A program made the position numbers and the translations under genes. Source: Planktothrix pseudagardhii (GTDB lineage Bacteria > Cyanobacteriota > Cyanobacteriia > Cyanobacteriales > Microcoleaceae). Taken from it: a DNA stretch of 64,000 nucleotides. Positions 23,408-45,417 of this stretch are shown one piece after another. The stretch's first letter is position 1; each line of letters opens with the position of its first letter. The notes beneath the pieces were generated by a model, which saw nothing but the letters and a program-made list of their open reading frames with translations, did not search any database and was not told the DNA's origin. The DNA is taken from the NCBI RefSeq assembly GCF_904830925.1, contig NZ_LR882967.1:3682106-3746105 (forward strand). The letters run 5' to 3'.

Positions 23408-24235
23408 TTGAGAGCTATGTCACCACCCCAAGAAACACTCCTAAATGGGATAATATTACCGCCCACGCAAGATGAACTACCTTGTGACGATGGAGTCCCG
23501 ATGGAAACTCAACGCCATAAACTGCAAATGGATTTACTGATTGATCAGTTAATTCCTTGGTTAGAACAACGAGAAGATGGTTATGTTGGGGGAAATATGT
23601 TCCTCTATTTTAGTTTAGCCCAAGTGCGGAACCAAGACTTCAAAGGCCCTGATTTTTTTGCCGTATTAGGCGTTCCCAAAAAAGAACGAAAAAGTTGGGT
23701 CGTTTGGGAAGAAGGAAAAGCCCCCGATGTGATTATTGAATTATTATCACAAAGTACCGCATCAGAAGATAAAACCAACAAAAAATTGATCTATCAAAAT
23801 CAAGTTCGGGTTCCTGAATATTTTTGGTATGATCCCTTTAATCCCGATGATTGGGCAGGATTTACGTTAATTAATGGCAGTTATGAACCTATTTTTCCTG
23901 ATCACTTTAATCAATTATTCAGTCAACAATTAGGGTTATCCTTAGTGCGATGGTCAGGTGTTTACAAGACAGTTGAAACGGTCTGGTTAAGATGGGCAAC
24001 TTCAGAAGGTGAAATTCTGCCTACACCCGATGAATTATCCGCCCACAAAGCCGAACAAGCCCAACGTCAAGCCGAGGAAGCTCAACGCCAAGCCGAGGAA
24101 GCTCAACGCCAAGCCGAAGAAGCTCAACGCCAAACCGAAGAAGCTCAACAGCGTTCCCAAGAGTTAGAAACGTTGCTAAACCGTTACCGTCAACAGTTCG
24201 GCGAATTACCCGAATCTAGTTCTGATCAATTTTGA
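23408..24235 (+). CDS. Uma2-family (DUF820) putative restriction-endonuclease-like protein with C-terminal EEAQRQA repeats
   Basis: 275 aa; core PD-(D/E)xK-like Uma2 region (DVIIELLS); C-terminus carries four tandem heptad repeats encoded by a 21-nt DNA tandem repeat at ~24055-24150. Confidence 0.75.
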   Translation: MRAMSPPQETLLNGIILPPTQDELPCDDGVPMETQRHKLQMDLLIDQLIPWLEQREDGYVGGNMFLYFSLAQVRNQDFKGPDFFAVLGVPKKERKSWVVWEEGKAPDVIIELLSQSTASEDKTNKKLIYQNQVRVPEYFWYDPFNPDDWAGFTLINGSYEPIFPDHFNQLFSQQLGLSLVRWSGVYKTVETVWLRWATSEGEILPTPDELSAHKAEQAQRQAEEAQRQAEEAQRQAEEAQRQTEEAQQRSQELETLLNRYRQQFGELPESSSDQF

Positions 24236-24307: not shown

Positions 24308-24733
24308 ATGAATCCCGTTGAGAAGGAATCCTTAGAAAGGCAATATGGGGCAGATCGTATGCGCCGAATGGAACGCTCTAAGCAGGTACAAAAAGTCATT
24401 ATGATCTTATCAATGCTTGCTTTTTTTGGTTCTACCATATTTGGATTAGGAAAAGTGTTTAAAGGTGTATTTGAACCTGAACCCCAACCAACTCAAACCA
24501 CAGAAGAACAATCTGCAACCGCTTTATTACAAAAGCAAGAAAACGGTTATGAAACTGTACTCAAACGAGAACCGAATAACCCAACAGCTTTGGAAGGTTT
24601 AGTGAAGGTTAGACTAGAAAAAAATAATATTCAAGGAGCAATTGAACCATTAGAAACCTTGATAAAATTATATCCTGATCGGCAAGATTATCAACAGTTG
24701 TTAACTCAATTAAAACAGGGAAATCAAAAATAA
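24308..24733 (+). CDS. membrane-anchored TPR-like protein
   Basis: 141 aa; one TM helix then a TPR-like segment; paralogous to the N-terminal region of the protein at 48372-49313. Confidence 0.5.
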   Translation: MNPVEKESLERQYGADRMRRMERSKQVQKVIMILSMLAFFGSTIFGLGKVFKGVFEPEPQPTQTTEEQSATALLQKQENGYETVLKREPNNPTALEGLVKVRLEKNNIQGAIEPLETLIKLYPDRQDYQQLLTQLKQGNQK

Positions 24734-24741
24734 ATCCCGTC

Positions 24742-25101
24742 ATGAAACATTTAGATTACTGGAGAAAACAGCAAAAACAGCAACAGTTAGAAGATCAAAT
24801 TAGAACGGAACAAGCCAGAACAGAAGTTCAAGGGATTGTTAAAGTATTAATAGAACAATTTTCTATTAAAAAAGTTATTTTGTTTGGTTCTTTAGTTCGA
24901 GGAAAATTTCATGAAAACTCTGATATTGATTTAGCGGTAGAAGGAGTGCCAAAAAAGGATTATTTTACAGCCGTTGCGATCGCTAATAATTTAACATCCC
25001 GATGGGTAGATTTAAAACCCCTAGAAGACTTAGAACCTCACTTTCGAGAAAGGGTTTTAACAACAGGAGAATGTGTTTATGAAGCCAATGTCAGCGAGTA
25101 A
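24742..25101 (+). CDS. MNT-type nucleotidyltransferase (MntA-like antitoxin family)
   Basis: 119 aa; GSLVRGKFHENSDIDLAV motif (GS...DxD) of the Pol-beta nucleotidyltransferase fold. Confidence 0.7.
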   Translation: MKHLDYWRKQQKQQQLEDQIRTEQARTEVQGIVKVLIEQFSIKKVILFGSLVRGKFHENSDIDLAVEGVPKKDYFTAVAIANNLTSRWVDLKPLEDLEPHFRERVLTTGECVYEANVSE

Positions 25102-25218: not shown

Positions 25219-28200
25219 TTATGAAAGTCTAGCCTTAATGACAGCTTGATAAAATTCTTCTAAAGCCGTCACACAAACTTGATCATCAAACAGAAGATGT
25301 TGGCGTTCACTCATCTGTTGAGAAATTGTTTCACGTCCTATACAATCTAACCCTAATTTGACCGCAATTTCAAGATATTCTGCTTCATTTTTGGCAATAG
25401 TTTCTGTTAAACCTATCATTTTTAGAAAACTATCCGCATGGCGACCTCGCATAAATTCCCCAGGACAGGTTACAATGGGTAAATAACAAGCGATCGCTTC
25501 TAAAGAGGTATTTCCTCCCGACCAAGTAAAGGTATCTAAAAACACATCCGAAAGTTGGTTTAACATTAAATAATCAAAGCGTTCGTCAACTTTTCGATGT
25601 AAACAATAATCCTGATAATTTAAGCCATAGTTGGAAAAAGTTTGATTTAAGCGTTCATTAAGTAATGTTCCTCGGAAAAATAAAAACTTAGCGTTCGGAA
25701 CTTTGAGTGCTATTTTAGGTAAAATATAATCATATTGGGGAAGATATTTAAAGGGAGCTTGACAACATAAATAAATCACCGCATCTTCGGGTAGATTATA
25801 GTCTGATCGAGTTTTAACTAACGGTGGAATATCTTGAGGTTTTGGATAAGCAACCCCAATATTAGGTAATAAAATTAAGGTTTCTGAATAATGTTCCTGT
25901 GCATTTTCCGGTTCCATTAATTGACTTGATAGGAAATAATCAATGGTTGGGAGTCCTGATGTGACGGGATGACCCCAAGCGGTGCATTGAATGGGTGCTA
26001 AACGTAAGGTGGCGAGTTCCATTGTTGGGGGGTTCATCCCAATTTCGGGATAAACTAAAATATGCAGTTGATCCTTAATAATTTGTTCACAAACGGCTTC
26101 AAAATTGTTAGGAATATGATAAAATTGATGGCTATATTGTCTAAATTGTTCCGTAACAGGATCAGGAGAATTCCCGGTATAATAAGCGTAAATTTCAAAC
26201 TGATTCCGGTTAGCATAGCGTAACCAACCAATTAACCACAGTGAACCACTATAACAATGCAAATAACTAGAAACATATCCCACTCGAATTTTATCCTTAA
26301 CTGTTGGTAGGGTTAGCGGTTGAACCCACTGAGGATATTTTAAGCACATAATTTGATGCAGAAAATTGCCATAAATTTTTTGTTCTTCAATCACATTTCT
26401 CGCTTGATACCCTAAATAAAAGTTGGTAAATCGTCCCATTCCTAAAAATGCTTGATCTACCGTTTCAGGATTAGTTAAATCTGTGGTTGCAATTAAATTT
26501 TGTAATCCTTGATTAAACCGATCTCGATAATTGTTGATTTCCTCAATAGAGTGGTACAACATCGGTACTATGAGATTTTTAAGCAGGGTAAAGGTATAAT
26601 CTTTGGGTAAGCATTCTGAGGCGATTTCCGCTTGTTTAACAGCTTCTTCTGTTCTTCCTTGATAAAGAAGGTTCATAATTAATGTAAAGTGAAGGGGAGC
26701 AAAATCAGGATATATTTTTGTTCCAATTTTCAAGATATCTATGGCATCATTCGGTTGATTGAGTTGCCAGTAACAGTGATTGAGTTTTTCATAAAGATCA
26801 ACATCTCCTACTTGCAAATTTAGGATTTTTTGATATTCTGTGATCGCTGCTTCATAATTGCCTAATTGGTACAAGCGATCGCCAAAACTACGATAATAAG
26901 AAATCGGATTTTTTTCAATTTCATCCGTTAGAGCTAAGTTATGCAGAATATCAGGCTGATCTGGAATAATCCTTAAACCTTTTTGATAGGTTGCTTTAGC
27001 GAATTGAAATTGATTTTGCAATAAAAATAAATTGCCTAAATTCAGGTAACTACAAAAATGATTAGGGTTAATCTCTATGGCTTGACGATAAATTGTTTCT
27101 GCTTCTGCAAATTGCCCTTGTTGCGTTAAGAGATTTCCTAAGTTATTATAAGCATCAATATGATCGGGTTTTAATTCGATTGTTTTTTGGTAAGCTGCGA
27201 TCGCTTGTTCAACTTGATTCAATTTTTCATAACTCATTCCTAAATAATAATAAGCTAAATTATTAGTTTGATCTTGGTTTAAAACATGAGATAATATTAA
27301 GATAGATTGAAAATAATTTTCTTTTTGGTAATATAAAATTCCTAAATTAACCCAAACTTCGGTGTTTTCTTCTTGCCATCTAAGCAATAATTTATAGTGA
27401 TTTTCAGCTAAATCCAACTGTTGGTTTTGATGAGCAGTTATCCCTTGTTGATAAATTTGTTGTAACTGTTCGTTTGTGGGTTTTTGTTCTGCTAATTCAA
27501 GAATTCCTTGGATGACAGAATCTTGACGTTGTGCTTGAAATATTTGCACTGAATAATTAAACGTTCTTTTCTGATTCCAACTTAAGACTTGAATTTGATC
27601 AGGGAGATGACAATTTACTAAAATAGACAATTCTGGAAACAGTTTTGCTTGTGGAAAAGAGGCTAGAAAATCCCAGATTGCTTGCTGAACAAAACTAATA
27701 TTTCCATGATCAACAATAATTAAAGCTGAATCCGATAAAAGGGGTTTAGCTAATAATAAAGCTAATAAAGTAGAACGATAATCGGTCGAACTCTGGACAA
27801 CATAAACTCCTATTTTAATCTCCGTTTCCAGTTGTCGCAGTTCTAATAAAAATTCTTCTACATCTTGGTTATAAAAACAAACCTGTTCCTCCAGGTTAAA
27901 CTGATGTAAATTTTTAAATAACTGTTCTAAACCTTCACCTTTTGGTGTAAAATCAGGATTGTCATTAATAGCATAGGCAATAGCTTCTGGTTGATTCAAA
28001 AGCGCACCAATCAATGTTAAACCCTGTTGTGTTCCAATCTCACAATAAATTTCATTGGGTTCCAGACTAGCAACCGCACAGTTGAGTAACGGGAGCAAAT
28101 TCTGGGGAAACTGCTCTGAAGCGAGGTTAAGCAACTGCTGAAACCGTTTATATTGCGGGTGGACAAAGACAGTTCCCCATTGTTCATATAAACGGGGTAG

Positions 28201-28233
28201 TTCTTGAATAAAGCGTTGATCATCCATAGTCAA
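25219..28233 (-). CDS. methyltransferase-like domain + TPR array + GT41 (O-GlcNAc-transferase-like) glycosyltransferase
   Basis: 1004 aa; ~12 TPR units in the middle; C-terminal GT41 catalytic halves (RVGYVSSYLH..., PIQCTAWGHPVTSG...); the N-terminal ~230 aa resemble a class I SAM methyltransferase. Confidence 0.75.
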   Translation of the reverse strand: MTMDDQRFIQELPRLYEQWGTVFVHPQYKRFQQLLNLASEQFPQNLLPLLNCAVASLEPNEIYCEIGTQQGLTLIGALLNQPEAIAYAINDNPDFTPKGEGLEQLFKNLHQFNLEEQVCFYNQDVEEFLLELRQLETEIKIGVYVVQSSTDYRSTLLALLLAKPLLSDSALIIVDHGNISFVQQAIWDFLASFPQAKLFPELSILVNCHLPDQIQVLSWNQKRTFNYSVQIFQAQRQDSVIQGILELAEQKPTNEQLQQIYQQGITAHQNQQLDLAENHYKLLLRWQEENTEVWVNLGILYYQKENYFQSILILSHVLNQDQTNNLAYYYLGMSYEKLNQVEQAIAAYQKTIELKPDHIDAYNNLGNLLTQQGQFAEAETIYRQAIEINPNHFCSYLNLGNLFLLQNQFQFAKATYQKGLRIIPDQPDILHNLALTDEIEKNPISYYRSFGDRLYQLGNYEAAITEYQKILNLQVGDVDLYEKLNHCYWQLNQPNDAIDILKIGTKIYPDFAPLHFTLIMNLLYQGRTEEAVKQAEIASECLPKDYTFTLLKNLIVPMLYHSIEEINNYRDRFNQGLQNLIATTDLTNPETVDQAFLGMGRFTNFYLGYQARNVIEEQKIYGNFLHQIMCLKYPQWVQPLTLPTVKDKIRVGYVSSYLHCYSGSLWLIGWLRYANRNQFEIYAYYTGNSPDPVTEQFRQYSHQFYHIPNNFEAVCEQIIKDQLHILVYPEIGMNPPTMELATLRLAPIQCTAWGHPVTSGLPTIDYFLSSQLMEPENAQEHYSETLILLPNIGVAYPKPQDIPPLVKTRSDYNLPEDAVIYLCCQAPFKYLPQYDYILPKIALKVPNAKFLFFRGTLLNERLNQTFSNYGLNYQDYCLHRKVDERFDYLMLNQLSDVFLDTFTWSGGNTSLEAIACYLPIVTCPGEFMRGRHADSFLKMIGLTETIAKNEAEYLEIAVKLGLDCIGRETISQQMSERQHLLFDDQVCVTALEEFYQAVIKARLS

Positions 28234-28485
28234 ACTTAGGAGCGTTGAATAGAGCCTATATAATATAGTACAAGCTTGTCATAGGCAATGAGTTGAATTT
28301 GCATTAAAAGAAACCTGATCGTTTATGGGATTATATCGGGTATTATAGGAGTACAGTAACTTTCACTGAATCTAAGCATTAACTTAGTAGTATTTAGACT
28401 AAGAAAGCTCAATTTTTTCTGATTATCTTAAGCCAATTAATCTACATAAAATTAGTAATATTAATAGATTCATTAGTATTACTAA

Positions 28486-31400
28486 TTGAAAAAGATAACT
28501 TATTTTAGTTTCGAGGATCAAATAATGTCTGAGCAGAGTTCGAGTTTAAATTCCATAATTTCTCCTGAAATTAAAAATGATGAATTTTATGATTATATTC
28601 AAAGAATTGCTCAAGAAGAAAATATAAAATATATTTTAGAAATCGGTTCATCATCGGGAGAAGGCAGCACAGAAGCCTTTGTTAAAGGAATTCGGAATAA
28701 CCCAAGCCGACCGAATTTATTTTGTATGGAAGTTTCTCAAATACGGTTTGAACAATTAAAGAATAGATATGAAAAAGACGAGTTTGTTAAATGTTATAAT
28801 GTATCTTCTGTTTCACTAGAGAAATTTCCTGATCAGACAGATGTTATTGAATTTTATAATCAACAACAATCTGGGTTAAATTATTATCCTTTAGAGCAAG
28901 TTTTGGGTTGGCTTCAACAAGATATCGAATATATTAAAGCTTCTCAGGTGGAAACGAATGGGATAGCAAAAATTAAACAAACTAATAATATTGATTTTTT
29001 TGATGTTGTTTTAATTGATGGTTCAGAATTTACAGGAGTTAGTGAATTACAAGAAGTATACGGTGCTAAATTAATTTTATTAGATGATATTAATACTTTT
29101 AAAAATTATACTAATTATCATAGGCTTCTTTCTGATCCCCAATATACATTAGTTAATCAAAATATTAACCTTCGTAATGGATACGCTATTTTTAGAAAAA
29201 ACACATTTTCTTTTGAAACTGAGCAATCTGAACAAAAGCTCGTTAAAAACCTAGTAACTTCAGGAATGACTGTTTTTGATGTTGGAGCTAATATTGGAGA
29301 TTATTCTATATTATTGAGTCAACTTGTAGGGAATTCAGGAAAAGTTTATTCATTTGAACCCACTTCTAACACTTTTCAAACCTTGCAAAACCGATTACAA
29401 GAAAATAAATGTGATAATGCTTCTGTTTACCAAAAAGTAATATTTTCTAATAATCAACCTATTGAGTTTAATGAATTTTCTGATGAATATTCAGTATGGA
29501 ATAGCATTGGATCTCCTCAAATGCCTGATCCCAATAAAAGTACAGAATATGTTCCTATTGTTAAAACAGAAATTTTAGAAGCTATTACTCTCGACTCTTT
29601 CTGTGAAGAAAATAATATCCAATCTATAGATTATTTAAAAATTGATGTAGAAGGTGCAGAAAGTGATGTTCTGCTGGGTGCTACTGAATTATTAAAAAAT
29701 CAGTCGATTCAATTTATCCAATTTGAAATTTCTCAAAAAATGCTCGAAGGATTAAATCGTAATGCTCAAACAACTTTTGATCTGTTGATTCAAAATGGTT
29801 ACGAGTGTCATCGCATCCAAGTCAACGGGGATATTGGTGAACAGGTTACTGGCTCTAACTCTTTCTATGAAAATTATATTGCTTTCCCACAACTACCGAT
29901 TCATTTCTTTACCATTGTTCTAAATGGGCAACCGTTTATCCGATACCATATTGATATTTTTAATAAATTAAGTTGTCAATGGCACTGGCATATTATTGAA
30001 GGAGTTGCTGACTTAAAACATGATACTTCTTGGAGCTTAAAACTGGGAGGTAAACTAACAGATCAGTTTCATGATCATGGACGAAGTAAAGATGGAACGT
30101 CAGAGTATTTAGATCAACTCGCTCAACAATATCCAGAAAATATCACGATTTACCGCCAACCTAAAGATATTGTTTGGGATGGCAAGCGAGAAATGGTGAA
30201 TGCTCCTCTTTCTAATATCCAAGAAGAATGTTTATTGTGGCAAATTGATGTAGATGAACTCTGGACAGTAGAACAAATCCATGCCGCTCGTCAAACCTTT
30301 GTTAATCATCCTGAAAAAACCGCAGCGTTTTACTGGTGTTGGTATTTTGTGGGAGAAAATTTACTGATCAGCACTCGTAATTGCTATACACAAAATCCTC
30401 AACAAGATTGGTTAAGAACTTGGCGATTTAAACCAGGAATGGTTTGGGCTGCCCATGAACCGCCGATTTTAGTAGAAACTTTACCCGATGGTCAACAGCA
30501 AAATGTAGCAGGTATTAATCCCTTTTTACATCATGAAACTGAACAAAAAGGCTTAGTCTTTCAACATTTTGCCTATATTATGCCAGAACAATTGCAATTT
30601 AAAGAAGAATATTATGGCTATCAAAATGCACTAGCACAATGGCAGAATTTACAATCCGCCACTCAATTTCCTGTATTTCTGCGGGAGTATTTTGCTTGGG
30701 TACAAGATCAAACTCAAGTCAATACTGCAACAGCCTATGGTATAACTCCGATTGTTTATAGAGACCGTCAGACAGAAACTTGGAAATTTCGGAAGCTTGA
30801 AGGTTCAAAAATTTTACCTTCACATTACGAACAATTATCACCTAAAATCTTGATTGATGGTGTGTTTTTCCAAATGTATAATACCGGAATTGCCCGGGTT
30901 TGGCGTTCCTTATTTGAGGAATGGGCCAATAACGGTTTTGGTCGTCATCTCGTAATTTTAGATCGCAACGGAACTATCCCCAAAATACCTGGGCTTTGGT
31001 ATCGGACAATCCCTGCTTATGACTATGCAAACACCGCTAATGATCGGCAAATTCTTCAGCAGGTTTGTGATGAAGAAGGAGCAGACTTATTTATCTCAAC
31101 TTACTACACGACTCCCATTTCAACCCCCTCAGTATTTATGGCTTATGACATGATTCCTGAAGTTTTGGGTGGAAATCTTAACGAGCCGATGTGGCGAGAA
31201 AAACATCATGGCATCCGTCATGGGTCAGCTTATATAGCGATTTCAGAAAATACAGCAACTGATTTGGTCAAATATTTTCCAGAGATTAATGCACCTGTAA
31301 CTGTTGCTTACTGCGGTATTTCAAGTCTTTTTTCTCCAGCAACAGCCGAAGAAATTCATCAATTTAAAATTAAGTATGGAATTCAAAAACCTTACTTTCT

Positions 31401-32325
31401 CCTAGTGGGAGCAGGCAGTAACTATAAAAATGCCATTTTATTTTTTCAAGCTTTTTCCCAACTCCAAAGTAAACAAGGCTTTGACATTGTGACAACAGGT
31501 AGTGGCTATCTACTGGCTGAAGAGTACCGAGCTTTTACTTCAGGTTGTGTTGTTCATCCCCTACAACTCTCCGATGATGAACTCAGACTCGCTTATTCAG
31601 GAGCAACGGCACTGGTTTACCCCTCCAAATACGAAGGGTTTGGAATGCCTGTAGCAGAAGCTTTAGCTTGCGGTTGTCCAGTAATTACTTGTCCCAATGC
31701 TTCACTTCCAGAAGTTGCTGGAGAAGCTGCAATTTACGTCAATGACGATGATATTAATGAACTCGCTAATGCTCTTTGTGAGGTGCAAAAACCCCTAGTT
31801 CGTCAGAAATTAATTCAGGCTGGGCTACAACAATCGAAAAAGTTTTCATGGTCAAATATGGGGAATGTTGTGAGTCAGGCGTTAATCAATGCAACGTTGC
31901 TGCGTTTACCCTTAAAAACAACAAATCTTATTATTTTTCCAGATTGGAATCAGCCTGAAGAAATACTATATGCTGAATTAGCAGATGTGATTCGAGAAAT
32001 TGCCTCTCATCCGAACAAGCATCAGATTACATTACTGATTGATCATCACCCTCTAACAGATGAAGAGGCGGATTTAACCTTATCTAGTGTGATTATGAAT
32101 CTACTGATGGAAGAAAATGTAGAGCTTGATGAAAGTTTAACTATTGCTTTCATCGGGAACATCAGTTCAGTCCAGTGGTCAGCTTTACATTCTCGTCTGC
32201 AAGGTCGAATTATCTTAGAACATGAAAATCAAGAAGCTTTGCTCCAAGTTCAGGGAGAAAAGCTCAGTTCTTATTCTTTAACCCAAGTCAGAAATTTATC
32301 CTTGCCATTGAAAACTGATGATTGA
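28486..32325 (+). CDS. giant multi-domain sugar-modifying enzyme: class I MTase + FkbM-family MTase + GT-A-like region + GT4 glycosyltransferase + conserved C-terminal domain
   Basis: 1279 aa; FkbM motif [12 protein letters not shown]; GT4 motif [18 protein letters not shown]; the C-terminal ~150 aa ([10 protein letters not shown]...) is homologous to the C-terminus of 34141-35133. Confidence 0.7.
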
Positions 32326-32873
32326 TCATAATCAACCTTAAAATTTATTCATCAATGAGGAGTTTTCTGATGAACATCAATCAACACTTGATTTTAAAGC
32401 GACCTGTATTTTTTTACCTTTATGAAGACAGCTTTTCCCATTTAAGTATTTGTTTAGCAGAAGGATTTAAAGAACTAGGAATACCTTTTTATTCTAATAT
32501 TAATTATTGGAAACTTTCTGAGCATCCTGATGAATATTTGTTTGAGCATAACCCTGAGATCACTGCTGATGACTGCTCTATTGTTGTCTTAGATACAAAA
32601 TGGCTCAATAGTAAAGGTGATTTTCCTGAAAACTTTTTTCAGCCAGGTAGACAATACATAACAGTTTACCTAGATGAGATGGATGGTTTAACCATTTGGA
32701 ATCCACCATTAGAACAGTTTGACCTACGATTTAGAACTCACTATAATCAAAGGTCAAAACATCCTGAAAACTGCGTTTCTTGGGTTTTTGGTTTGTCAAA
32801 CCGCATCATTGAACAAACTCAAGACTACCCTCAATTTCAAGAACGACAGTCTTCTAAGCTGTTAAGCATCTAA
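32322..32873 (+). CDS. hypothetical protein; possibly the N-terminal part of a glycosyltransferase gene interrupted by IS630
   Basis: 183 aa; start overlaps the upstream stop (ATGA); ends 7 bp before the IS630 left end. Confidence 0.4.
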   Translation: MIIINLKIYSSMRSFLMNINQHLILKRPVFFYLYEDSFSHLSICLAEGFKELGIPFYSNINYWKLSEHPDEYLFEHNPEITADDCSIVVLDTKWLNSKGDFPENFFQPGRQYITVYLDEMDGLTIWNPPLEQFDLRFRTHYNQRSKHPENCVSWVFGLSNRIIEQTQDYPQFQERQSSKLLSI

Positions 32874-32879
32874 ATAGGG

Positions 32880-34130
32880 TATAATGAAAAACCAAGTTTA
32901 GAAAAATCAATCAAAAGATGCCTGCTAAAAATCATTTAAATGAAAAGCAAGTAGAGAAACTACAGAAAAGATTGAAAGAGGAAGAAAATGGACAAATCCG
33001 AGAAAGAATCTTGATTTTATTATTGCTAAATGATGGTAAAAAGCAAAGTGAAATTGCCAAGTTTTTGGGCTGCTCATTAAACAAAGTATGTTATTGGTGT
33101 GTACATGGAGACCCTGACAAATTAGAAAGCCTAAAAGATGAAAGAATGAAAGGAAATTATAGAAAAGCCACAGACAAATATATAGAGATATTATTAGAAA
33201 CAGTAGAAAAAGAACCGGAAGAATTAGGATATGAATTTGGGAGATGGACAGGAGAAAGATTGGCAACTTATTTAGAACAAATCACAGGAATCAAATTAAG
33301 TAGTTCACAAGTGAGAAAGATATTAAAGGAAAAAAAGTATGTTTATTTGTGGGCAAAGTATAGCTTAGAAGAGAAAAGAGATCCAGAAAAAAGAAAATTA
33401 TTTAAAGATAAAATAGAAGAATATTTGAAAATAGCAAAAGAAAGTCCAGAACAATTACAGGTATGGTTTTGGGATGAAAGTGGATTTAATTTAAGAGTGA
33501 TAAAAAGAAAGAATTGGTGTAAAAAAGGGAAGAGGAAACAGATTAGAGGAGACAGGAGGAAAGGAAGAGTTAATGTGATGGGAGGATTGAGGTACTCGGA
33601 TAAAAAAAGATTTGTAGAATTTCTGGATAAAGGAAATGCAGATAATTTTTATCAAGTGTTAAAAAGTTTTTATCAAGAGCTAATTTATGAATGGGTATTA
33701 GCGGGAAATCAAGCAGAAGAATTTGTAGAAAAAGGAGCTAAGATCCTGATTATTCTTGACAATGCAAGTTTTCACAAAAAAGAAGAGTACCTAGAAAAAA
33801 TTAAAGCAGAAATGCCGAATGTCTATTTAGAATTTCTTCCAGCATATAGTCCAGATTATAATTTAATTGAATTAGTCTGGCATTCAGCTAAAGAATATAT
33901 AGCTCATCGACTCTTTAAATCAGTTGATGAGCTAGAGTGTTTATTACATCAGCTTTTAAATGAAGGACAGTTATCTATTAAATGGGGACGTAAACTTAAA
34001 AACAAAGGTAATGCTATAATCACAGTTTAAATACACAACAGCTTATCATCTTTAACTTTAGAGTAGAGCAAGATCAGATAATAACAACGAGAAGTTGGTT
34101 CAAATTTGAAGCTGGGTTTTCATTTTTAAA
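32880..34130 (+). mobile_element. IS630-family insertion sequence (~1.25 kb); ends approximate
   Basis: single DDE transposase ORF; imperfect terminal inverted repeats ATAATGAAAAACC / GGGTTTTCATTTTT; TA dinucleotides at both flanks consistent with IS630 TA target duplication. Confidence 0.65.
32918..34030 (+). CDS. IS630/Tc1-mariner family DDE transposase
   Basis: 370 aa; N-terminal HTH (KQSEIAKFLGCSLNKV); DDE region WFWDESGF...ILDNASFHK...YSPDYNLIE. Confidence 0.85.
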   Translation: MPAKNHLNEKQVEKLQKRLKEEENGQIRERILILLLLNDGKKQSEIAKFLGCSLNKVCYWCVHGDPDKLESLKDERMKGNYRKATDKYIEILLETVEKEPEELGYEFGRWTGERLATYLEQITGIKLSSSQVRKILKEKKYVYLWAKYSLEEKRDPEKRKLFKDKIEEYLKIAKESPEQLQVWFWDESGFNLRVIKRKNWCKKGKRKQIRGDRRKGRVNVMGGLRYSDKKRFVEFLDKGNADNFYQVLKSFYQELIYEWVLAGNQAEEFVEKGAKILIILDNASFHKKEEYLEKIKAEMPNVYLEFLPAYSPDYNLIELVWHSAKEYIAHRLFKSVDELECLLHQLLNEGQLSIKWGRKLKNKGNAIITV

Positions 34131-34140
34131 TAGCGGATTA

Positions 34141-35133
34141 TTGGTTTTTGAAAATCCCGTCCGACGGATCTCAAAACAACAGATTCTTCCTCTCTTTCAA
34201 GGAATTCTTAATATTGATGATCGGATTGATCAATTTGATCAACCGCCTTCTGATAGCTACCATGCCTTGCAGTGGGAACAAACAGGAAAAAGGCATCATC
34301 CTCAATATTACAAGCGATTAAAAGAATCAGTGGCTTGTGCTGGTTTTGCAGGCTGTGTTATTCCCTATAATAACTCAGGAGAATTCTTAGTAGAATGGTG
34401 GGATAGTTGGAGATTTTGGGAATCTTTGGCTGCTGGATGTGTTACTTTCCATGTAGACTTTGATAAATATGGTATTGATCTGCCTGTGATCCCCGAAAAT
34501 TGGCGACATTATATTGGGATTGATTTAGAACATCCACAAGACACGATTGATCGAATTATCAGTGAACCCAATATTTTAGAGCAAATTTCTACTGAAGGAC
34601 GCCAGTGGGCTATCAATCATTACAGCCCAGTTCCGACAGCATTACGATTTTTAGAAACGATTTCTGCATATCAAAACGCCAAAAATGGTTTTTTTGAAAC
34701 TTCTCAGCAGTCCTTAGAGCAAACGATTAATTTACCTTTAAGGAAAATTAATCTTGTTATTTTCCCCGATTGGTCTCAACCTGAACTCTCTTTAAGTTTA
34801 GAGCTAAAACCGATACTTCAAACCCTCGCCAATCACCCGGATGCTCTGGACATCACATTATTACTGGATAATCGAAATAAAACGGATGAAGAAGCTAATT
34901 TAATTTTATCGAGTGTGGTAATGGATCTTTTAATGGAGGGGGAAGTTTCTCTTGGATCGGAACACTTAGAAATTACGTTGATTGGTCAAGGAAATTCTAA
35001 CCAATGGCCAGTTTTACTTCCTAGACTTTTGGGTCGGATTCAATTAGAAAATGAAGACCAAACAGCGATCGCAGAAAGTAAAGCTGACCAACTCCCCTGC
35101 TATTCTCTGGATTGTTTAAACTGGCAATTTTAG
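34141..35133 (+). pseudogene. C-terminal fragment of a glycosyltransferase (GT1 C-terminal-like) carrying the shared ~150-aa C-terminal domain; no ATG for >250 codons
   Basis: ORF opens at TTG immediately after the IS630 right end; RFWESLAAGCVTF resembles the Glyco_trans_1_2 motif; the C-terminus aligns with the C-terminus of 28486-32325. Confidence 0.45.
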
Positions 35134-35168
35134 ATGAATAGATCTAAGTATAGCAGGGTTTTTGTCCA

Positions 35169-37424
35169 CTAATGGCTGTCTAAATATCGTTGCCACATTT
35201 GTTCATAAGCTTTTTCCATTTCAAGTGTAAATTGTTTAGCATTCCACAAAGGTGCAGTTTGCCGATTTTTTTTCAATTTCCAGGAAATATTTTGCCGCAA
35301 ATGTTCATCAGTTCCTAACTTAATACCCCAATCTAAATATTCTTCATCTGTCCAGGCAATCCCTTCGGTAATCCCGGCATTGATCATCATTCCGTAGCTA
35401 TTGCGACTCGAAAACTGTTCACCCACTCGTGCAACTAAAGGAATTCCCATCCACAAGGTTTCCATTGTTGTTGTTGCACCATTATAAGGATAAGTATCCA
35501 AGACAACATCTACAATACCTAAATTAGCACGATGGATTTCTTCTGTTGCCACTCCGGGTAAAAATCGCAAGCGATCTGGATTCACACCTTCCTGTTCTGC
35601 AATATCAATGAAGAATCTGTTTAATGATTCCTCAGAGCCCCAACCTTTAATAATAAAGTAGCTATTGGGTACTTCCTTAATAATTTTCATGTGTAAATGT
35701 GCGGTTTGAGGATTATGTTTAAATCCCCGTTGACCACTATAAAAAACCACTGCATCCGTTGGAATATTTAATTGATCCCGTCTCAGAGTAGGAACCCCTA
35801 CATCAAATCCATCAATAGCAATATAGGTTTGAGGAAGACGCCAAATTGTTTCTTGATAGTATTCCTGTGCAGACTCTGGTAAAACATAAGGATCAGCAAT
35901 AAAATAATCTATAGCAGGTACTCCTGATGCGTCCCAACCCAGCCAAGTCACTTGAATGGGAGCAGGCTTGAGAGACATAAATCCACACGTGCTATTTAAG
36001 GTGATACTATCAAGATCAACTAAAATATCAATCTCATCTTTATAGATTTGTTCTGCAACTTCTAAACCTCCTAGTCCTACTTTATACGCCTTTGAAACCT
36101 GATTAATATACCAACCTTCTAAGGAATCCGATGTTTCTTTTGGCCCAATAATATAAGCATAAAGCTCAAAATTTTCTCGATTATGATATTGAAATAATCC
36201 TCGTGCTAACCAGCCAACCGAATGTTTTCTTAAGCAATGGGAAATATATCCAATTTTTAGCTTTTTAGATGCGTGTTGTCGAGAAGTTGATCTGACTCCC
36301 TGACGATATCGCTCCACTTCTTCAGCGCAGTCAATTTCAATATTAGTTTGGCAGAATCGTGACAAACGGTTACGAAGTTGGGCATTTTCTTTAGGCTTAT
36401 CCTGAATATAATTGAAAAAGAATGTTGCATTATATAAACGAAGAATGTGAGCACCTGAACCCAGATTAGTTGGATATTCTTCAAGTAACTTTTCAATGAG
36501 ATGTTTATGCTCTTTAATTCTTGAAGCTGCTTCCTCCCAATAGCCACCTGCACTCATCAAGCCTCGTAAAATCATGTGATTATCAAAGATTTTTTCGGGC
36601 AAGTGCGTAACTAAAGAATAAGCTAATTTAGCGGATTCAATTGCTTTAGTATGTTCACTAATCTCTGCATAGAATGAAGAAATAGCTCGTAAAAGTTCAG
36701 GTTCTAAGGGAGCAATGCGTAATCCTAACTCAATAAACTTAATTGCCCATCTTTGTTGACCCCTAAGATAGGCTGTGTCATAAACAAATTTGAGCAAAAT
36801 CGGAATTAAATCATTGGGGTTGGGGATATGGGCTAAACAAGCCTCAGTCAATGTTAATGTTGCCGGATGTAGAGGAATATAATCGAGAATTTTAGGCAAT
36901 AGTTCAAGTAACTGCTGAGTATCTACTTCACTCGCTGGTTCTTCATTTAAAAGATCAATCAACCCTAAAGAAGTTAGTTCTTCGCCAACATCCATCTTCA
37001 AATGAATCGAAAGTTCAATCAGATGAAAGAGATTGATAATATCGGAAGGGTTAAGCTCTCGAATATGTTGCCGAATTGCCCAAGCTACAGAATAGTCCTC
37101 TAAGGTTTCTCTTCGTTGTGCTTCATTCTCTAAAACTTGATTTAATTCAACTGTCCAAATTTCTATATCTTCTGCTTCTCCATCTCCCATCCCGATCAGC
37201 CAAGTGGTTTGAGCTTCGGTTTCTTGTCCCTGTAACAGAAAAACTAAACCTAGATACCAATAGTTAGTTTTAATGTCAGGTTCTGTAGTAATCTTCTGTT
37301 CATAGAAATTAGCTGCTTTACTATAATCTCCCTTGACCAGAGATTCATAGCCTAAATTTTTAACCCTGAAACTTTCCACGTTGCACTCTTCTAACATAAG
37401 CCCATTGTAATGCGAAAATTTCAA
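35169..37424 (-). CDS. TPR + GT41 (O-GlcNAc-transferase-like) glycosyltransferase
   Basis: 751 aa; N-terminal TPR region; C-terminal GT41 halves (KIGYISHCLRKHSVGWL, APIQVTWLGWDASGVPAIDYF). Confidence 0.8.
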   Translation of the reverse strand: MKFSHYNGLMLEECNVESFRVKNLGYESLVKGDYSKAANFYEQKITTEPDIKTNYWYLGLVFLLQGQETEAQTTWLIGMGDGEAEDIEIWTVELNQVLENEAQRRETLEDYSVAWAIRQHIRELNPSDIINLFHLIELSIHLKMDVGEELTSLGLIDLLNEEPASEVDTQQLLELLPKILDYIPLHPATLTLTEACLAHIPNPNDLIPILLKFVYDTAYLRGQQRWAIKFIELGLRIAPLEPELLRAISSFYAEISEHTKAIESAKLAYSLVTHLPEKIFDNHMILRGLMSAGGYWEEAASRIKEHKHLIEKLLEEYPTNLGSGAHILRLYNATFFFNYIQDKPKENAQLRNRLSRFCQTNIEIDCAEEVERYRQGVRSTSRQHASKKLKIGYISHCLRKHSVGWLARGLFQYHNRENFELYAYIIGPKETSDSLEGWYINQVSKAYKVGLGGLEVAEQIYKDEIDILVDLDSITLNSTCGFMSLKPAPIQVTWLGWDASGVPAIDYFIADPYVLPESAQEYYQETIWRLPQTYIAIDGFDVGVPTLRRDQLNIPTDAVVFYSGQRGFKHNPQTAHLHMKIIKEVPNSYFIIKGWGSEESLNRFFIDIAEQEGVNPDRLRFLPGVATEEIHRANLGIVDVVLDTYPYNGATTTMETLWMGIPLVARVGEQFSSRNSYGMMINAGITEGIAWTDEEYLDWGIKLGTDEHLRQNISWKLKKNRQTAPLWNAKQFTLEMEKAYEQMWQRYLDSH

Positions 37425-37529
37425 AAAGATCGAGGAACAAAATAGGTAGCGTTTTTGACGCTACCTAATCTGAGTTGACGAATATAATGGTACTAAACAC
37501 CAGTTTTCAAACCATATTAGAGTTATCAA

Positions 37530-38032
37530 CTATTTAACAAATGTCCAGTTGATACCATCACAAATTGATACACTATCAAAGGCAGTAATAGAGGTTGTTT
37601 TACTTTCACACAACACCGTGCTAGTTGTATTCGCTTCACCAGCAGAAATCAAGAAGACTGAACCAGCATAGGCTTTCAGACCGCTAACGGGAGTGGCTTG
37701 AGCCGTTGCAGGGGCAGCAGTAGTGTTACTAACAGTGTAAGTGTAATTATTAGTTGCTGTTTTTAGACCTAAACCTAATTGATCAACACTGGTTCCAAAC
37801 TGGCTCGTTTCTGCATAAACAGCTTGCTGGCCTTTGTTAATCGAAGAAATGTATTGTTTTCCTTCAGATTGTTTAGCTTTGTTGGCTTGGCTGAGGAAGG
37901 AAGGCAGAGCGATCGCAGCCAAAATACCGATAATGATAATAACAACTAACAATTCAATTAAGGTGAAACCTTCTTCTTTTTTTCTATTAGCAACGTATTG
38001 CAGGAATTTTGCTTTAAATTCGGTCTTCATAG
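37530..38032 (-). CDS. pilA: type IV pilin (PilA-like) with Ser/Thr-rich C-terminal half
   Basis: class III signal GFTLIELLVVIIIIGILAAIALPSF; AAGAGGAGA RBS before the ATG at 38032 (ORF track opens further upstream at 38090); two C-terminal Cys for the disulfide loop. Confidence 0.75.
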
Positions 38033-38133
38033 GTTTTTCTCCTCTTGGGGGGATGTTTAACTTTTTATCTGGTAGTTCTAACTTACCCACTCTCTCAACC
38101 TTTCATATCACCCCTACAAAAATTTTTTTTATT

Positions 38134-39456
38134 TCACCCGGAATGCTCCAGAAGCAAATACAGAAAGGCATCCAGGGTGATAAGGACTTCTTTGATCTGT
38201 TGCAGTGCCCTCTGGACAGTAATCGGTTCTAGGGTAATAGGATCAATAGGATAAATTTGTTGCCACCGTTCTGCCAGAGAGATTACCGTTTGTTCTCCAT
38301 CCCATAACGGCAGTAAACAGGCGGCTCGACTGCTTTCAAGGGTGATGGGTATGCGAGTGGGTAGCTTCACATATTGGCTAATTTCATAAGGTCTATGGGT
38401 CTGAATACATTCAATTAAGTCTGCTTTAGCTTGAGTCATTCTGAGTTGGGGATGTAAATGAACCCGTGCCGTTTGCCAATCAACTTCAGCCCATTCAGAC
38501 ACCGGGAGAATCAATTCTTGCTCACAATGACCACACCAAAAATCTAATAACCGATGCACGGGGTTAATTAACTCAAATAAATGTAGCTGTTCCTCGATAG
38601 AAATTTCGGATAAACTCAAGGCTAGAAACGCAGGTAAGTTATCAGGATCTTTAAATAAATCTAGTAACTGCCATTGTCGCCATTTTACCATACTGATCAA
38701 TTGTAAATCAGTTGCCTTCAAAACCGCAAAAACCTCTGGGATTGTATAGCCTTTATCCCCTTGAAGTAAATAATTAACCAGCAACCATTCGTCATTTTTA
38801 TAATCTGGACTATTCCAAGTTTGTGTCTTGAGTACCACTTCATCTTTGATGGATTCTATTGTTTCTCTAGCGATCTCAACCTTCAATTCTTGAGAAGTTT
38901 CATCCATGACTCCCATGAGTTTAAACAGAGATTGCGCCCTAAAATAACCGACCCTTTGATATAAACTATGTACATTAGCCCGAATAATACCTTGGGGTTT
39001 TAAAACTTGTTTGATCCCTTGCATTGCATTGAATAAATTTGGGCATAGATAAAGCACCTCATCTGCATTAATATAATCAAACTCATACCCAATTTCTGGT
39101 AAGTTTTCTATCGGTAAAACATAAAATTCTGTATTATCAAACCCATGAAATTTTAAACGTTGACGAGCCAGTTCAATAGATTGTTCAGAAATATCAATCC
39201 CTACAATTTTAGCCCCTGGATTGGCTTCTGCTAACATTAAGGATTTATATCCGCTTCCACAGCCTGCATCTAAAATAACTTTTCCTTCTGTATTAATAAC
39301 TTTCTGATATTTTAAATAATAAGGCGTGACTAAATTGTGGATAAATAGCAACTCATAATCGGTTTTAGGGGAGTGTTCTAAGGGAATTCTAGGATAGGGG
39401 GCTGAGTCAAACTGTTGACGAATTTTTTCTAATAATTTTGGATCTTGGTTTTGCAT
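38134..39456 (-). CDS. class I SAM-dependent methyltransferase with a large C-terminal extension
   Basis: 440 aa; motif I ILDAGCGSGYKS; co-directional and immediately upstream of the pilin gene. Confidence 0.7.
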   Translation of the reverse strand: MQNQDPKLLEKIRQQFDSAPYPRIPLEHSPKTDYELLFIHNLVTPYYLKYQKVINTEGKVILDAGCGSGYKSLMLAEANPGAKIVGIDISEQSIELARQRLKFHGFDNTEFYVLPIENLPEIGYEFDYINADEVLYLCPNLFNAMQGIKQVLKPQGIIRANVHSLYQRVGYFRAQSLFKLMGVMDETSQELKVEIARETIESIKDEVVLKTQTWNSPDYKNDEWLLVNYLLQGDKGYTIPEVFAVLKATDLQLISMVKWRQWQLLDLFKDPDNLPAFLALSLSEISIEEQLHLFELINPVHRLLDFWCGHCEQELILPVSEWAEVDWQTARVHLHPQLRMTQAKADLIECIQTHRPYEISQYVKLPTRIPITLESSRAACLLPLWDGEQTVISLAERWQQIYPIDPITLEPITVQRALQQIKEVLITLDAFLYLLLEHSG

Positions 39457-44250: not shown

Positions 44251-45417
44251 TTAACTTTCTTCTGATGCAGCTTTCCGTTTTAACGGTTTAGCAAGGGGTT
44301 CTCGACGGGGAGGAGGCGGAGGCGCATCCGATTGGAATTTAGGCTTATAGGGAGGACGAGAGCCCGTATTGGAGTAACCCTGACCGGGTTGTCTTCTGGG
44401 GCCACCTTTTTGAAAGGGAGGTTTGCGCTTTTTAGTAGGAAGAAAGCCGATATCATGACTTTCTTGGATGACCAAATAATCTTCCTGTAACTGAACGTGT
44501 AAATCCCAGAAATGACCAACGGCTCTCATTCCAGCAATTCCCATCAGTTTCAGTTTGAAAAACTTGGGTTTATCATTATCTTTACGAGGAGCTTGGCGAA
44601 TTTTAACAATGACATATTTCTCAACTTCTTGAGATTGATAAACAACCTCACCTCGAATGGAAAAATAGCCTTGTTGAACGTCCGGTAAGGCTTCAGTTTT
44701 ATTCCCAGATTCTGCTAATTTTGATTCCTCAGAAACCGATGCAGAATCTTTTATTTCGGGTGAAGATTCATCAGAAATTTCAGATTCATCAGATCGGAGG
44801 GTTTCAGGTTCCCAAACCCCCATAATTTGAACGTGTAAATTCCCTTCTTGTTGACGTGTCCGAGGATAAACCACCCAAAGATGATCTTGATCTAAGTCAA
44901 TATGTTTTTTCACTAAACTCATGACTCGACCTAATAACACCGCATCCAGAAGTTTTCCTTCACTGGTGAGTAAGGTTCCTTGGGTAAACTGATCCGCAGA
45001 AGCAATATATCGGCCATGAACTAATCCAATAGCACGATACTGGCGAGCTTCGCTAGGTGGTGGAATTGGATGTTGCCAGAGACGTTCTACAGAGTCAGAG
45101 GACTCAGAAGATTCAGAAGATTCTTCCTCTGTTTCTTCTTCGGATTCAATCATTTCAGGCTGATCCAATGCACCATCTTGGGGTGTTGGGTCAGGACTCT
45201 CTGGTTCTGGTGGTATTTCTTTTAACGCTTCAGGGATGACACGTTCACTCTCGTGAGGGGCATCCAAATGGATATCTTTAGACATATTCACGGCTGGCTC
45301 ATTAACTGGACTTGAGCGGGAAGAACGTTTAGATTGAGAGGATCGATTGGGAGAAGGACTCATAAAACCTCTTAGCGGAGACACATCCCTTGTGGGATCG
45401 AGGACATGGCAAACCAA
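44251..45417 (-). CDS. hypothetical protein with acidic Ser/Glu-rich linker and basic Pro-rich C-terminus
   Basis: 388-aa ORF (the true start may be an internal Met); two ~60-aa related segments; no known domain recognised. Confidence 0.45.
   Translation of the reverse strand: MVCHVLDPTRDVSPLRGFMSPSPNRSSQSKRSSRSSPVNEPAVNMSKDIHLDAPHESERVIPEALKEIPPEPESPDPTPQDGALDQPEMIESEEETEEESSESSESSDSVERLWQHPIPPPSEARQYRAIGLVHGRYIASADQFTQGTLLTSEGKLLDAVLLGRVMSLVKKHIDLDQDHLWVVYPRTRQQEGNLHVQIMGVWEPETLRSDESEISDESSPEIKDSASVSEESKLAESGNKTEALPDVQQGYFSIRGEVVYQSQEVEKYVIVKIRQAPRKDNDKPKFFKLKLMGIAGMRAVGHFWDLHVQLQEDYLVIQESHDIGFLPTKKRKPPFQKGGPRRQPGQGYSNTGSRPPYKPKFQSDAPPPPPRREPLAKPLKRKAASEES

Follow-up and report, generated by a model that had tools for sequence, protein, structure and literature searches.

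A 64,000-nt stretch of the Planktothrix pseudagardhii contig NZ_LR882967.1 (the window) was analyzed by scanning the translations of its open reading frames (ORFs) with Pfam and NCBIfam. The locus of interest contains a type IV pilin gene, pilA, that lies between the genes for a 440-residue methyltransferase (MT440) and a 751-residue OGT-like enzyme (GT41_751). Beyond GT41_751 lies an accessory cassette of glycosyltransferase (GT) and methyltransferase genes, two of which end in the same C-terminal domain. The features are listed in Table 1. A previous interpretation of this DNA (the sequence-only reading) had proposed a pathway that glycosylates the pilin with a methylated glycan. Every ORF named there was recovered, and most of the domain labels were reproduced; the exceptions are the TPR label of GT41_751 and the N-terminal methyltransferase and GT-A-like labels of the 1279-aa enzyme. 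The pilA start at 38032 is out of frame, and the ATG is at 38030.

Gene Order and Conservation of the Locus

The locus is flanked by unrelated housekeeping genes, with an AI-2E transporter and HcyBio on one side and a small TPR protein (TPR141), a Pol-beta nucleotidyltransferase, and Uma2 on the other. The G+C content is 0.31-0.34 inside the cassette versus approximately 0.39 around it.

One genome per species was scanned, which identified relatives of MT440 in 502 genomes, and 78 loci with 10-kb flanks were taken. The window proteins were compared with all ORFs of these loci using BLASTP. Close homologs of MT440 (58-92% identity) are present in Planktothrix, Microcoleus, Okeania, Lyngbya, Tychonema, Kamptonema, Limnospira, and some Chroococcales. 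A pilA homolog is located directly 3' of MT440 in 71 of the 72 loci having at least 1 kb of room, typically after a spacer of 100-115 nt. Where at least 4 kb is available, an ortholog of GT41_751 comes after pilA (63/65 loci), and where at least 9 kb is available, proteins with the shared C-terminal domain are found farther on (44/48 loci). The outer markers are recurrent as well, with HcyBio and AI-2E on one side and the small TPR protein and Uma2 on the other. Identical gene order was observed in an independent metagenome contig, and a partial order, with the cassette beside a GT41 gene, was observed in an Anabaena contig. The comparison with relatives suggested in the sequence-only reading therefore found the linkage in nearly all of the loci examined, and the adjacency to pilA is not coincidental. 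Low G+C content notwithstanding, synteny extends across genera, and the locus is not a strain-specific island. It is a conserved core with a variable part. One of the loci (JBLNEP010000226.1, labeled Actinomycetota bacterium MAG69) has a typical Microcoleus-like MT440-pilA-GT41-cassette order and is probably a mis-binned cyanobacterial contig.

The identities to the proteins of Planktothrix relatives are 88-93% for HcyBio, 91% for AI-2E, 68-82% for MT440, 63-78% for PilA, and 53-59% for GT41_751. The last value is no higher than the identity of GT41_751 to its Microcoleus and Tychonema orthologs (57-60%). Divergence is thus far greater in the pilin and its putative modifying enzymes than in the genes around them. 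This divergence, the turnover of the cassette, and the low G+C content resemble those of surface-antigen loci. The conserved flanks and divergent pilA, GT41, and cassette genes suggest diversifying pressure on the chemistry of the pilus surface, which bears on the interactions with phages and grazers in blooms.

Table 1. Features of the pilA locus and their positions in the 64,000-nt window
Feature	Position	Strand	Evidence
MT440, 440-aa class I methyltransferase	38134-39456	-	Pfam Methyltransf_31, 1.6e-28
Promoter-like boxes in the MT440-pilA spacer	38077-38113	-	GGGTGATAT at 38113-38105, TGGGTAAGTTAGA at 38089-38077
Shine-Dalgarno-like GAGGAGAAA	38044-38036	-	Downstream of both promoter-like boxes
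pilA, 166-aa prepilin	37530-38030	-	N_methyl, 1.7e-9; Pilin_GH, 4.9e-22
Terminator-like hairpin in the pilA-GT41_751 gap	37443-37467	-	Consensus scan
GT41_751, 751-aa OGT-like enzyme	35169-37424	-	Glyco_transf_41, 8.9e-50 (PF13844, 169.9 bits, cutoff 25)
Split gene, 3' part	34046-35133	+	Terminates in shared-domain copy 2 (34726-35130)
IS630-family insertion sequence	32857-34043	+	Transposase at 32918-34030; DDE_3, 7.6e-36, and HTH domains
Split gene, 5' part	32322-32856	+	Reconstruction and alignment to intact homologs
1279-aa multidomain enzyme	28486-32325	+	FkbM, GT4, and shared C-terminal domain
GT41_1004, 1004-aa enzyme	25219-28233	-	TPR, 2e-30; GT41, 1e-35
TPR141, 141-aa TPR protein at the cassette boundary	24308-24733	+	TPR_19, 3.2e-7

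The Pilin and Its Two Flanking Enzymes

The product of pilA has the leader MKTEFKAKFLQYVANRKKEEG/FTLIELLVV, a Cys pair, and a C-terminal Lys. The prepilin motif occurs only once in the window, and the match of the pilin to TIGR02532 scores 31.1 bits (cutoff 16.3). The NCBIfam model PilA_Myxo gives 67.7 bits, which is under its cutoff of 400 bits. An alignment was made of 75 mature homologs. The sequence KEEG/FTLIELLVVIIIIGILAAIALP, the N-terminal helix, and the Cys pair (C120 and C136) of the Pilin_GH domain are invariant. The Thr-rich sequence K69-T70-x-T72-T73-N74-Y75 is conserved, with an invariant T72 and a Ser or Thr at position 70 in 97% of the pilins. A second conserved Ser/Thr patch is found at residues 114-117. 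Four lysines are invariant or nearly so (K30 and K32, 100%; K37 and K69, 89%). Ser and Thr make up 29% of the globular part of the window pilin, relative to a homolog mean of 22%, in agreement with the Ser/Thr-rich C-terminal half noted previously. The pilin ends in Lys in 49 of the 75 loci; in the other 26, its last residue is L, V, E, or a different one.

PilA1 from Synechocystis PCC 6803 has a trimethylated C-terminal Lys and an O-glycan on peptide 67-75 (Kim et al. 2009, 2011, cited in PMC7076178). The window pilin also ends in Lys, and its Thr-rich stretch (mature residues 69-75) overlaps the glycosylated peptide described there. No assignment of the enzymes that modify Synechocystis PilA1 was found in the literature accessible to the search.

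The GGGTGATAT and TGGGTAAGTTAGA boxes upstream of pilA are conserved (at least 70% of columns) in 74 upstream regions from several genera. The hairpin downstream of pilA, a pattern match only, has a 10-bp stem followed by TTTTGTT. A sigma-70 consensus scan gave 10 promoter-like sites versus 14.7 in shuffled sequence and is uninformative for cyanobacterial group 3 sigma promoters. In Nostoc punctiforme, ogtA is sigJ-dependent, whereas pilA, one of the most highly expressed genes, depends strictly on sigF. The boxes, the hairpin, and the differing sigma factors make a single MT440-pilA-GT41 operon, as previously proposed, unlikely. Rather, pilA is probably its own transcription unit between the genes of its putative modifiers, with the boxes as the predicted promoter. 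The two G-rich boxes are approximately 16 nt apart and could help to define a consensus for sigF-type pilA promoters; no sigF motif was found in the N. punctiforme study, where the regulon was too small.

A profile of 12 MT440 homologs was run against all PDB sequences. The best match is Rv2067c from M. tuberculosis (2.6e-21), which covers about residues 61-299, the catalytic and dimerization domains. The rickettsial methyltransferases PKMT1 and PKMT2 were matched at 1.5e-12 and 1.9e-11, respectively. Rv2067c is a protein-lysine trimethyltransferase, and PKMT1 and PKMT2 methylate many lysines of the surface protein OmpB. The sugar O-methyltransferase AtmM (6uv6, glucose) was matched at 1.8e-9 within the Rossmann core only (residues 61-158). 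The S-adenosylmethionine-binding motif of MT440, D63-x-G65-C-G67-x-G69, is invariant. The AlphaFold model of MT440 has a pLDDT of 69, with values of 85-96 in the Rossmann core, a confident C-terminal domain, and values below 50 for residues 162-303. When this model was used as the query in Foldseek, the top ten matches were all PKMT2, Rv2067c, or PKMT1, over the full length (437-471 columns).

Because the best matches in sequence and in fold are protein-lysine methyltransferases, MT440 was assigned to this group as a predicted protein N-methyltransferase of the PKMT1/2-Rv2067c type. The catalytic, helical dimerization, and C-terminal domain layout may be shared with these enzymes. MT440 differs from them in its identity of only about 15-28%, in its proposed substrate (a pilin), and in its poorly predicted helical domain; the Rv2067c alignment reaches residue 299-301, in a region of the model with a pLDDT below 50. 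The assignment of this gene as a sugar methyltransferase in the sequence-only reading was unsupported by any test. Since MT440 is encoded next to pilA in almost every locus, the pilin is its obvious candidate substrate, and MT440 is a candidate pilin methyltransferase. A literature search for a cyanobacterial pilin methyltransferase, or for the enzyme responsible for the trimethyl-lysine of PilA, found none described. The C-terminal Lys of the pilin was considered as the specific target of MT440 and rejected. It is missing from 26 of the 75 MT440 loci and is therefore not the sole or universal target. Lysines of the pilin in a wider sense were preferred instead as putative targets, with K30, K32, K37, and K69 as conserved candidates.

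Two or three tandem copies of MT440 are found at 11 loci. Three paralogs, 67-82% identical to MT440 of the window, are located 5' of pilA in Planktothrix paucivesiculata and a related metagenome-assembled genome (L001, 182-4318; L002, 7183-11329), and two copies are found in nine other loci. In some Kamptonema, Microcoleus, and Oscillatoriales, the pilA-adjacent methyltransferase is 745-750 residues long (L065, 7317-9560; L067, 9086-11323; L068, 5058-7310). Homologs of 747 and 748 residues (P0054 and P0082) have an additional PF05721 domain (PhyH, Fe/2-oxoglutarate dioxygenase). This fusion hints that one substrate may be both hydroxylated and methylated.

The PDB matches of GT41_751 are human OGT (1.4e-48), SPINDLY (2.4e-43), TtOGT from Thermobaculum (4.9e-42), and XcOGT from Xanthomonas (6e-36). 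GT41_751 retains the residues that align with the lysine of the KIDP motif and the histidine of the HPTSH motif of human OGT (GQRGFKHNP on NQLYKIDP and LRKHSVG on FGKHPTS). We take this lysine to be equivalent to K842 of human OGT and to K445 of SeOgt from Synechococcus elongatus, and the conserved histidine to H498 of human OGT. No transmembrane (TM) segment is predicted in GT41_751 (hydropathy maximum 1.10). Its earlier label as a TPR-GT41 enzyme was reproduced for the GT41 part, and the TPR matches are sub-threshold (TPR_2, E 0.0052; TPR_7, 0.011; a designed TPR in the PDB, 0.0068). Two tandem paralogs of GT41_751 follow pilA in many loci. The tandem paralogs of MT440 and GT41_751 may reflect specificities for different sites or degrees of modification, as for PKMT1 versus PKMT2.

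In S. elongatus, ogt (Synpcc7942_0051) adjoins pilA (Synpcc7942_0048/0049), Ogt is needed for the glycosylation of PilA, and the catalytic lysine of SeOgt is K445 (PMC9306852). The same study found ogt adjacent to a pilin gene in 77 of 201 cyanobacterial genomes (38%). With both Ogt-dependent glycosylation and a synteny survey published, the pilA-OGT linkage is firmer than the sequence-only reading had implied. In N. punctiforme, OgtA is Npun_F0677, and the loss of ogtA abolishes the accumulation of PilA. From an indexing hit, pilA of this organism is presumably the adjacent Npun_F0676.

GT41_751 fits as the positional counterpart of the cyanobacterial Ogt/OgtA, with a putative role in glycosylation of the pilin. 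In both systems, a major pilin gene lies beside the gene for a soluble GT41 enzyme that retains the catalytic lysine. Unlike Ogt, the N-terminal 380 residues of GT41_751 give just sub-threshold TPR matches. The core of pilA and an OGT-like GT41 gene is a member of the published system. A conserved PKMT-like methyltransferase 5' of pilA, a second TPR-GT41 enzyme, and a variable cassette with a common C-terminal domain are absent from the searchable papers. The neighbors of pilA and ogt in S. elongatus are annotated merely as hypothetical, and nothing was found in the literature search for the Nostoc neighbors Npun_F0675 and Npun_F0678. The conservation of the pilin, its promoter-like boxes, and its position beside the Ogt counterpart suggest that it is the major filament subunit.

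The Accessory Cassette and the Shared C-Terminal Domain

The 1279-aa enzyme has an FkbM domain at residues 262-440 (TIGR01444, 112 bits, cutoff 37.7; PF05050, 82.1 bits, cutoff 22.7, 6.7e-23), a GT4 domain at residues 800-1125 (Glyco_trans_1_4, 3.4e-19; C-terminal GT-B lobe 967-1100, PF13692 69.9 bits and PF00534 63.5 bits), and the shared C-terminal domain at residues 1140-1269 (31903-32292). The FkbM and GT4 domains had been assigned previously. The class I methyltransferase that had been placed at the N-terminus was not found, and residues 1-245 matched no methyltransferase family. The proposed GT-A-like region corresponds to three sub-threshold GT2-family matches (E 0.0017-0.098) at about residues 534-612. 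No matches were obtained in a PDB sequence search with the N-terminal 245 and the middle 320 residues. A 1249-aa ortholog, 66% identical, is found in one related locus (L061).

GT41_1004 contains the TPR and GT41 domains previously assigned to it, and the methyltransferase-like N-terminal region gave a sub-threshold match to Methyltransf_24 (2.2e-4). No similarity was detected in a pairwise comparison of this region with the N-terminal region of the 1279-aa enzyme. GT41_1004 has no shared C-terminal domain. Its homologs, 51-67% identical over the catalytic part, are found in approximately 20 loci, in the same neighborhood but on either side of pilA.

The ORFs that flank the IS630 transposase, 32322-32873 and 34141-35133 (+), gave no family match. 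The insertion sequence (IS) has 20-nt terminal inverted repeats, complementary at 80% of positions, and is flanked by a TA duplication. Deletion of 32857-34045 (the IS and one copy of TA) restores a single ORF of 540 codons, collinear end to end with intact homologs of 527-545 residues in four relatives. The split gene proposed in the sequence-only reading is thus confirmed, and one enzyme of the cassette was therefore inactivated recently. The homologs of this class in relatives carry Glyco_trans_1_2 matches.

Seventeen cassettes are delimited on both sides, all 17 being bounded by TPR141 homologs. These cassettes are 2.4-6.7 kb in size and contain 1-4 ORFs, and 34 of their 37 ORFs are convergent with pilA-GT41. 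The families listed for 34 cassette ORFs of the 17 relatives include GT4 (13), Methyltransf_23 (8), Glyco_trans_1_2 (8), GT2 (5), FkbM (4), and TPR proteins. The gene content varies from genome to genome.

No flippase, polymerase, ABC exporter, initiating phosphoglycosyl transferase, or Wzy_C-type oligosaccharyltransferase was found among the window ORFs at about 16.3-54.6 kb, and the same families are absent from the most frequent families listed for the 34 cassette ORFs of the relatives. These results support the sequence-only reading against its own alternative, an exopolysaccharide locus. No TM segments are predicted in the enzymes of the window. Soluble enzymes in the absence of lipid-carrier genes favor a stepwise cytoplasmic glycosylation directly on the protein. 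A methylated glycan, as proposed previously, is plausible for the cassette by way of its fused FkbM, Methyltransf_23/11, and TylF domains; a contribution from MT440 is not supported.

The shared C-terminal domain contains about 135 residues. The two copies in the window, the only ones found there, are 48-49% identical and match the domain profile with E 1e-49 to 1e-53, in support of the novel domain described in the sequence-only reading. No Pfam family was matched. A word-indexed search with the domain gave seven matches and was superseded by an exhaustive profile search, which gave 550 clusters at 50% identity (456 at E ≤1e-10). The domain is located at the end of most of these proteins, 128 of 161 full copies ending no more than 20 residues from the C-terminus. 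Fifteen proteins have two copies in the order module-domain-module-domain. The attached modules were identified with Pfam scans of 53 representative proteins. The glycosyltransferase modules are GT4 (20), GT2 (19), GT41 (11), and Glyco_trans_1_2 (10), and the methyltransferase modules are Methyltransf_24 (6), Methyltransf_23 (4), Methyltransf_11 (4), and TylF (2). A polysaccharide deacetylase module is found in at least one.

The structural model of the domain (pLDDT 89.8) is a single Rossmann lobe that resembles half of a GT-B fold. We infer that it may serve as a docking or assembly module. Unlike the Asp1/Gap1 proteins of the Accessory-Sec system, which are degenerate GT-B folds, the domain has one Rossmann lobe, a generic similarity, and no sequence relationship to them. 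Its signature could be used to find such enzymes in any genome.

TPR141 has one predicted TM helix at residues 30-48 (hydropathy maximum 2.08), followed by the TPR motif, and is syntenic in many loci. Being the sole membrane protein encoded at the locus, it could tether the soluble enzymes to the membrane that holds the prepilin. Two further genes are located at this boundary of the cassette. One, at 24742-25101 (+), encodes a Pol-beta-type nucleotidyltransferase (MNT-like) that may be one member of a toxin-antitoxin pair; the other, at 23408-24235 (+), encodes a Uma2-family endonuclease. Uma2 recurs at this position in many relatives, often in multiple copies.

Proposed Function of the Locus

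From the sequence comparisons above, the locus is probably a post-translational modification locus for the major pilin, with MT440, pilA, and GT41_751 as the conserved core and a fast-evolving accessory cassette. In the proposed mechanism, pilA would be transcribed from its own strong promoter, as suggested by the conserved boxes and the terminator-like hairpin. GT41_751 would transfer the first sugar from a nucleotide sugar to Ser/Thr of the pilin, by analogy with the genetics of S. elongatus and N. punctiforme. The likeliest site of glycosylation would be the K-T-x-T-T-N-Y sequence of mature residues 69-75. The soluble GT4, GT2-like, second TPR-GT41, and IS-split transferases, together with the fused FkbM-type methyltransferases, could then extend and O-methylate the glycan on the protein. 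These steps would proceed without a lipid carrier, given the absence of flippase, oligosaccharyltransferase, initiating transferase, and TM segments, and the half-GT-B-like domain might act as the common docking and assembly module. MT440 would methylate lysines of the pilin (K30/K32/K37/K69 or the C-terminal Lys), with its position pointing to this substrate. The diversity of the cassette and of GT41_751 among close relatives would diversify the surface of the pilus.

Similar arrangements are familiar from flagellin and pilin glycosylation islands and from the flagellin lysine methylase FliB beside fliC, where a filament gene is flanked by variable GT and methyltransferase genes, with strain diversity and lower G+C content. 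In proteobacteria, the O-glycosylation of pilins by the PglL/TfpO route depends on a lipid carrier together with an oligosaccharyltransferase in the periplasm. In contrast, no oligosaccharyltransferase was found at this locus, either in the window at about 16.3-54.6 kb or in the families listed for the relatives.

Several observations weigh against a pilin-modification locus of this kind. Pilins are inserted into the membrane with the glycosylated domain outside, a difficulty for the access of a cytoplasmic GT41 enzyme here as in the model organisms. SPINDLY, an O-fucosyltransferase, matches GT41_751 nearly as well as OGT does, and the donor sugar therefore cannot be deduced from the sequence of GT41_751. 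The Foldseek TM-scores of MT440 are only 0.44-0.51, and the middle third of its model is of low confidence. MT440 is retained in the 26 loci where the pilin lacks a C-terminal Lys. In addition, CpcM is likewise PKMT2-like in the literature.

A more specific proposal, in which MT440 is a dedicated cyanobacterial pilin lysine methyltransferase and the half-GT-B domain is the docking module of a cytoplasmic, carrier-independent assembly line, is possible but less likely than not. If it is true, the docking domain would bring together exchangeable modules (GT, methyltransferase, and deacetylase) that, seeded by the Ogt-type GT41 enzyme, decorate the pilin. The swapping of modules would then yield pilus-surface diversity much as in O-antigen clusters.

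Alternatively, only GT41_751 might act on the pilin, and the cassette might make another glycoconjugate (a glycolipid, a different glycoprotein, or a polysaccharide of the sheath or slime), the adjacency being due to co-regulation or ancestry. The evidence that ties the cassette enzymes to the pilin is indirect, and the cassette is convergent and has its own divergent promoter region at 28233-28486. Motility in cyanobacteria couples pili with polysaccharide secretion, and weak NCBIfam matches were obtained to the hormogonium-polysaccharide transferases HpsP and HpsO. These scores, 27.6 and 20.1 bits, are to be compared with cutoffs of 550 and 575, respectively. The cassette stays beside pilA-GT41 in 44/48 loci across genera despite its changing content, it includes further GT41 enzymes, and no genes for export, a polymerase, a flippase, or an initiating transferase were found among the families listed for its ORFs. 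We consider a cassette unconnected with the pilin unlikely.

The proposal of the sequence-only reading, that all methyltransferases of the locus, MT440 included, act on sugars to build one methylated O-glycan on the pilin, is rather less likely again. FkbM and TylF-type sugar methyltransferase domains are indeed present in the cassette enzymes, Pfam places MT440 among the generic class I methyltransferases, and AtmM is among its PDB matches. However, that match is confined to the core, whereas the much stronger match to Rv2067c takes in the dimerization domain as well, and protein-lysine methyltransferases fill the first ten places among the fold matches. MT440 also lacks the C-terminal domain that marks the sugar-handling enzymes and is encoded on the opposite side of pilA, in the core.

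It is improbable that MT440 methylates some other protein, such as Asn of a phycobiliprotein in the manner of CpcM, or a protein of the pilus machinery or the cell surface, with the adjacency to pilA reflecting shared regulation. CpcM, the phycobiliprotein Asn methyltransferase, has also been modeled on PKMT2 in the literature, is described as PKMT-like, and is similar to MT440 in size and domain position. The related CpcM methylates Asn, and an Asn could thus also be the target of MT440. The persistence of MT440 where the pilin has no C-terminal Lys is consistent with another substrate. Against this stand the 71/72 adjacency with its spacer of 100-115 nt, the four near-invariant lysines of the pilin, and the tandem copies of MT440 in 11 loci, which would be unusual for a housekeeping phycobiliprotein enzyme. 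None of the 120 closest homologs of MT440 is named CpcM by any source.

That the GT41 enzymes are cytoplasmic N-glycosyltransferases of the HMW1C/NGT type acting on the four N-X-S/T sequons of the window pilin is very improbable and was rejected because the sequons are not conserved (homolog mean 1.3; none in 21 of 75); family GT41 does include NGT enzymes, and GT41_1004 has a weak NCBIfam NGTferase match (NF049992), but this match reaches 41.8 bits where the cutoff is 1000, and OGT, SPINDLY, and bacterial OGTs head the PDB matches.

Under the favored assignment as a modification locus for the pilin, three elements appear new relative to the searchable literature: a PKMT-type methyltransferase beside pilA, a hypervariable cassette of soluble GT and methyltransferase genes, and an uncatalogued half-GT-B domain. 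Type IV pili drive the motility, DNA uptake, flocculation, and biofilm behavior of cyanobacteria, including bloom-forming Planktothrix and mat-forming Microcoleus. Only Ogt has been genetically tied to pilin glycosylation, and the locus offers a candidate for methylation and a candidate set of enzymes for the steps beyond the first sugar.

Other features were observed elsewhere in the window. A group II intron is located at 45686-47514 (-). Its ORF at 45763-47514 contains RVT_N, RVT_1, GIIM maturase, and HNH domains, and the Rfam Intron_gpII domain V/VI is found at 45686-45764 (57.9 bits). The adjoining 388-aa ORF at 44251-45417 has no Pfam match. A second stretch of low G+C content (0.325-0.335) at 52-55 kb contains a 627-aa ORF at 52740-54623 (+), also with no Pfam match, beside the gene for an LPG_synthase_TM-like membrane protein at 51759-52721.

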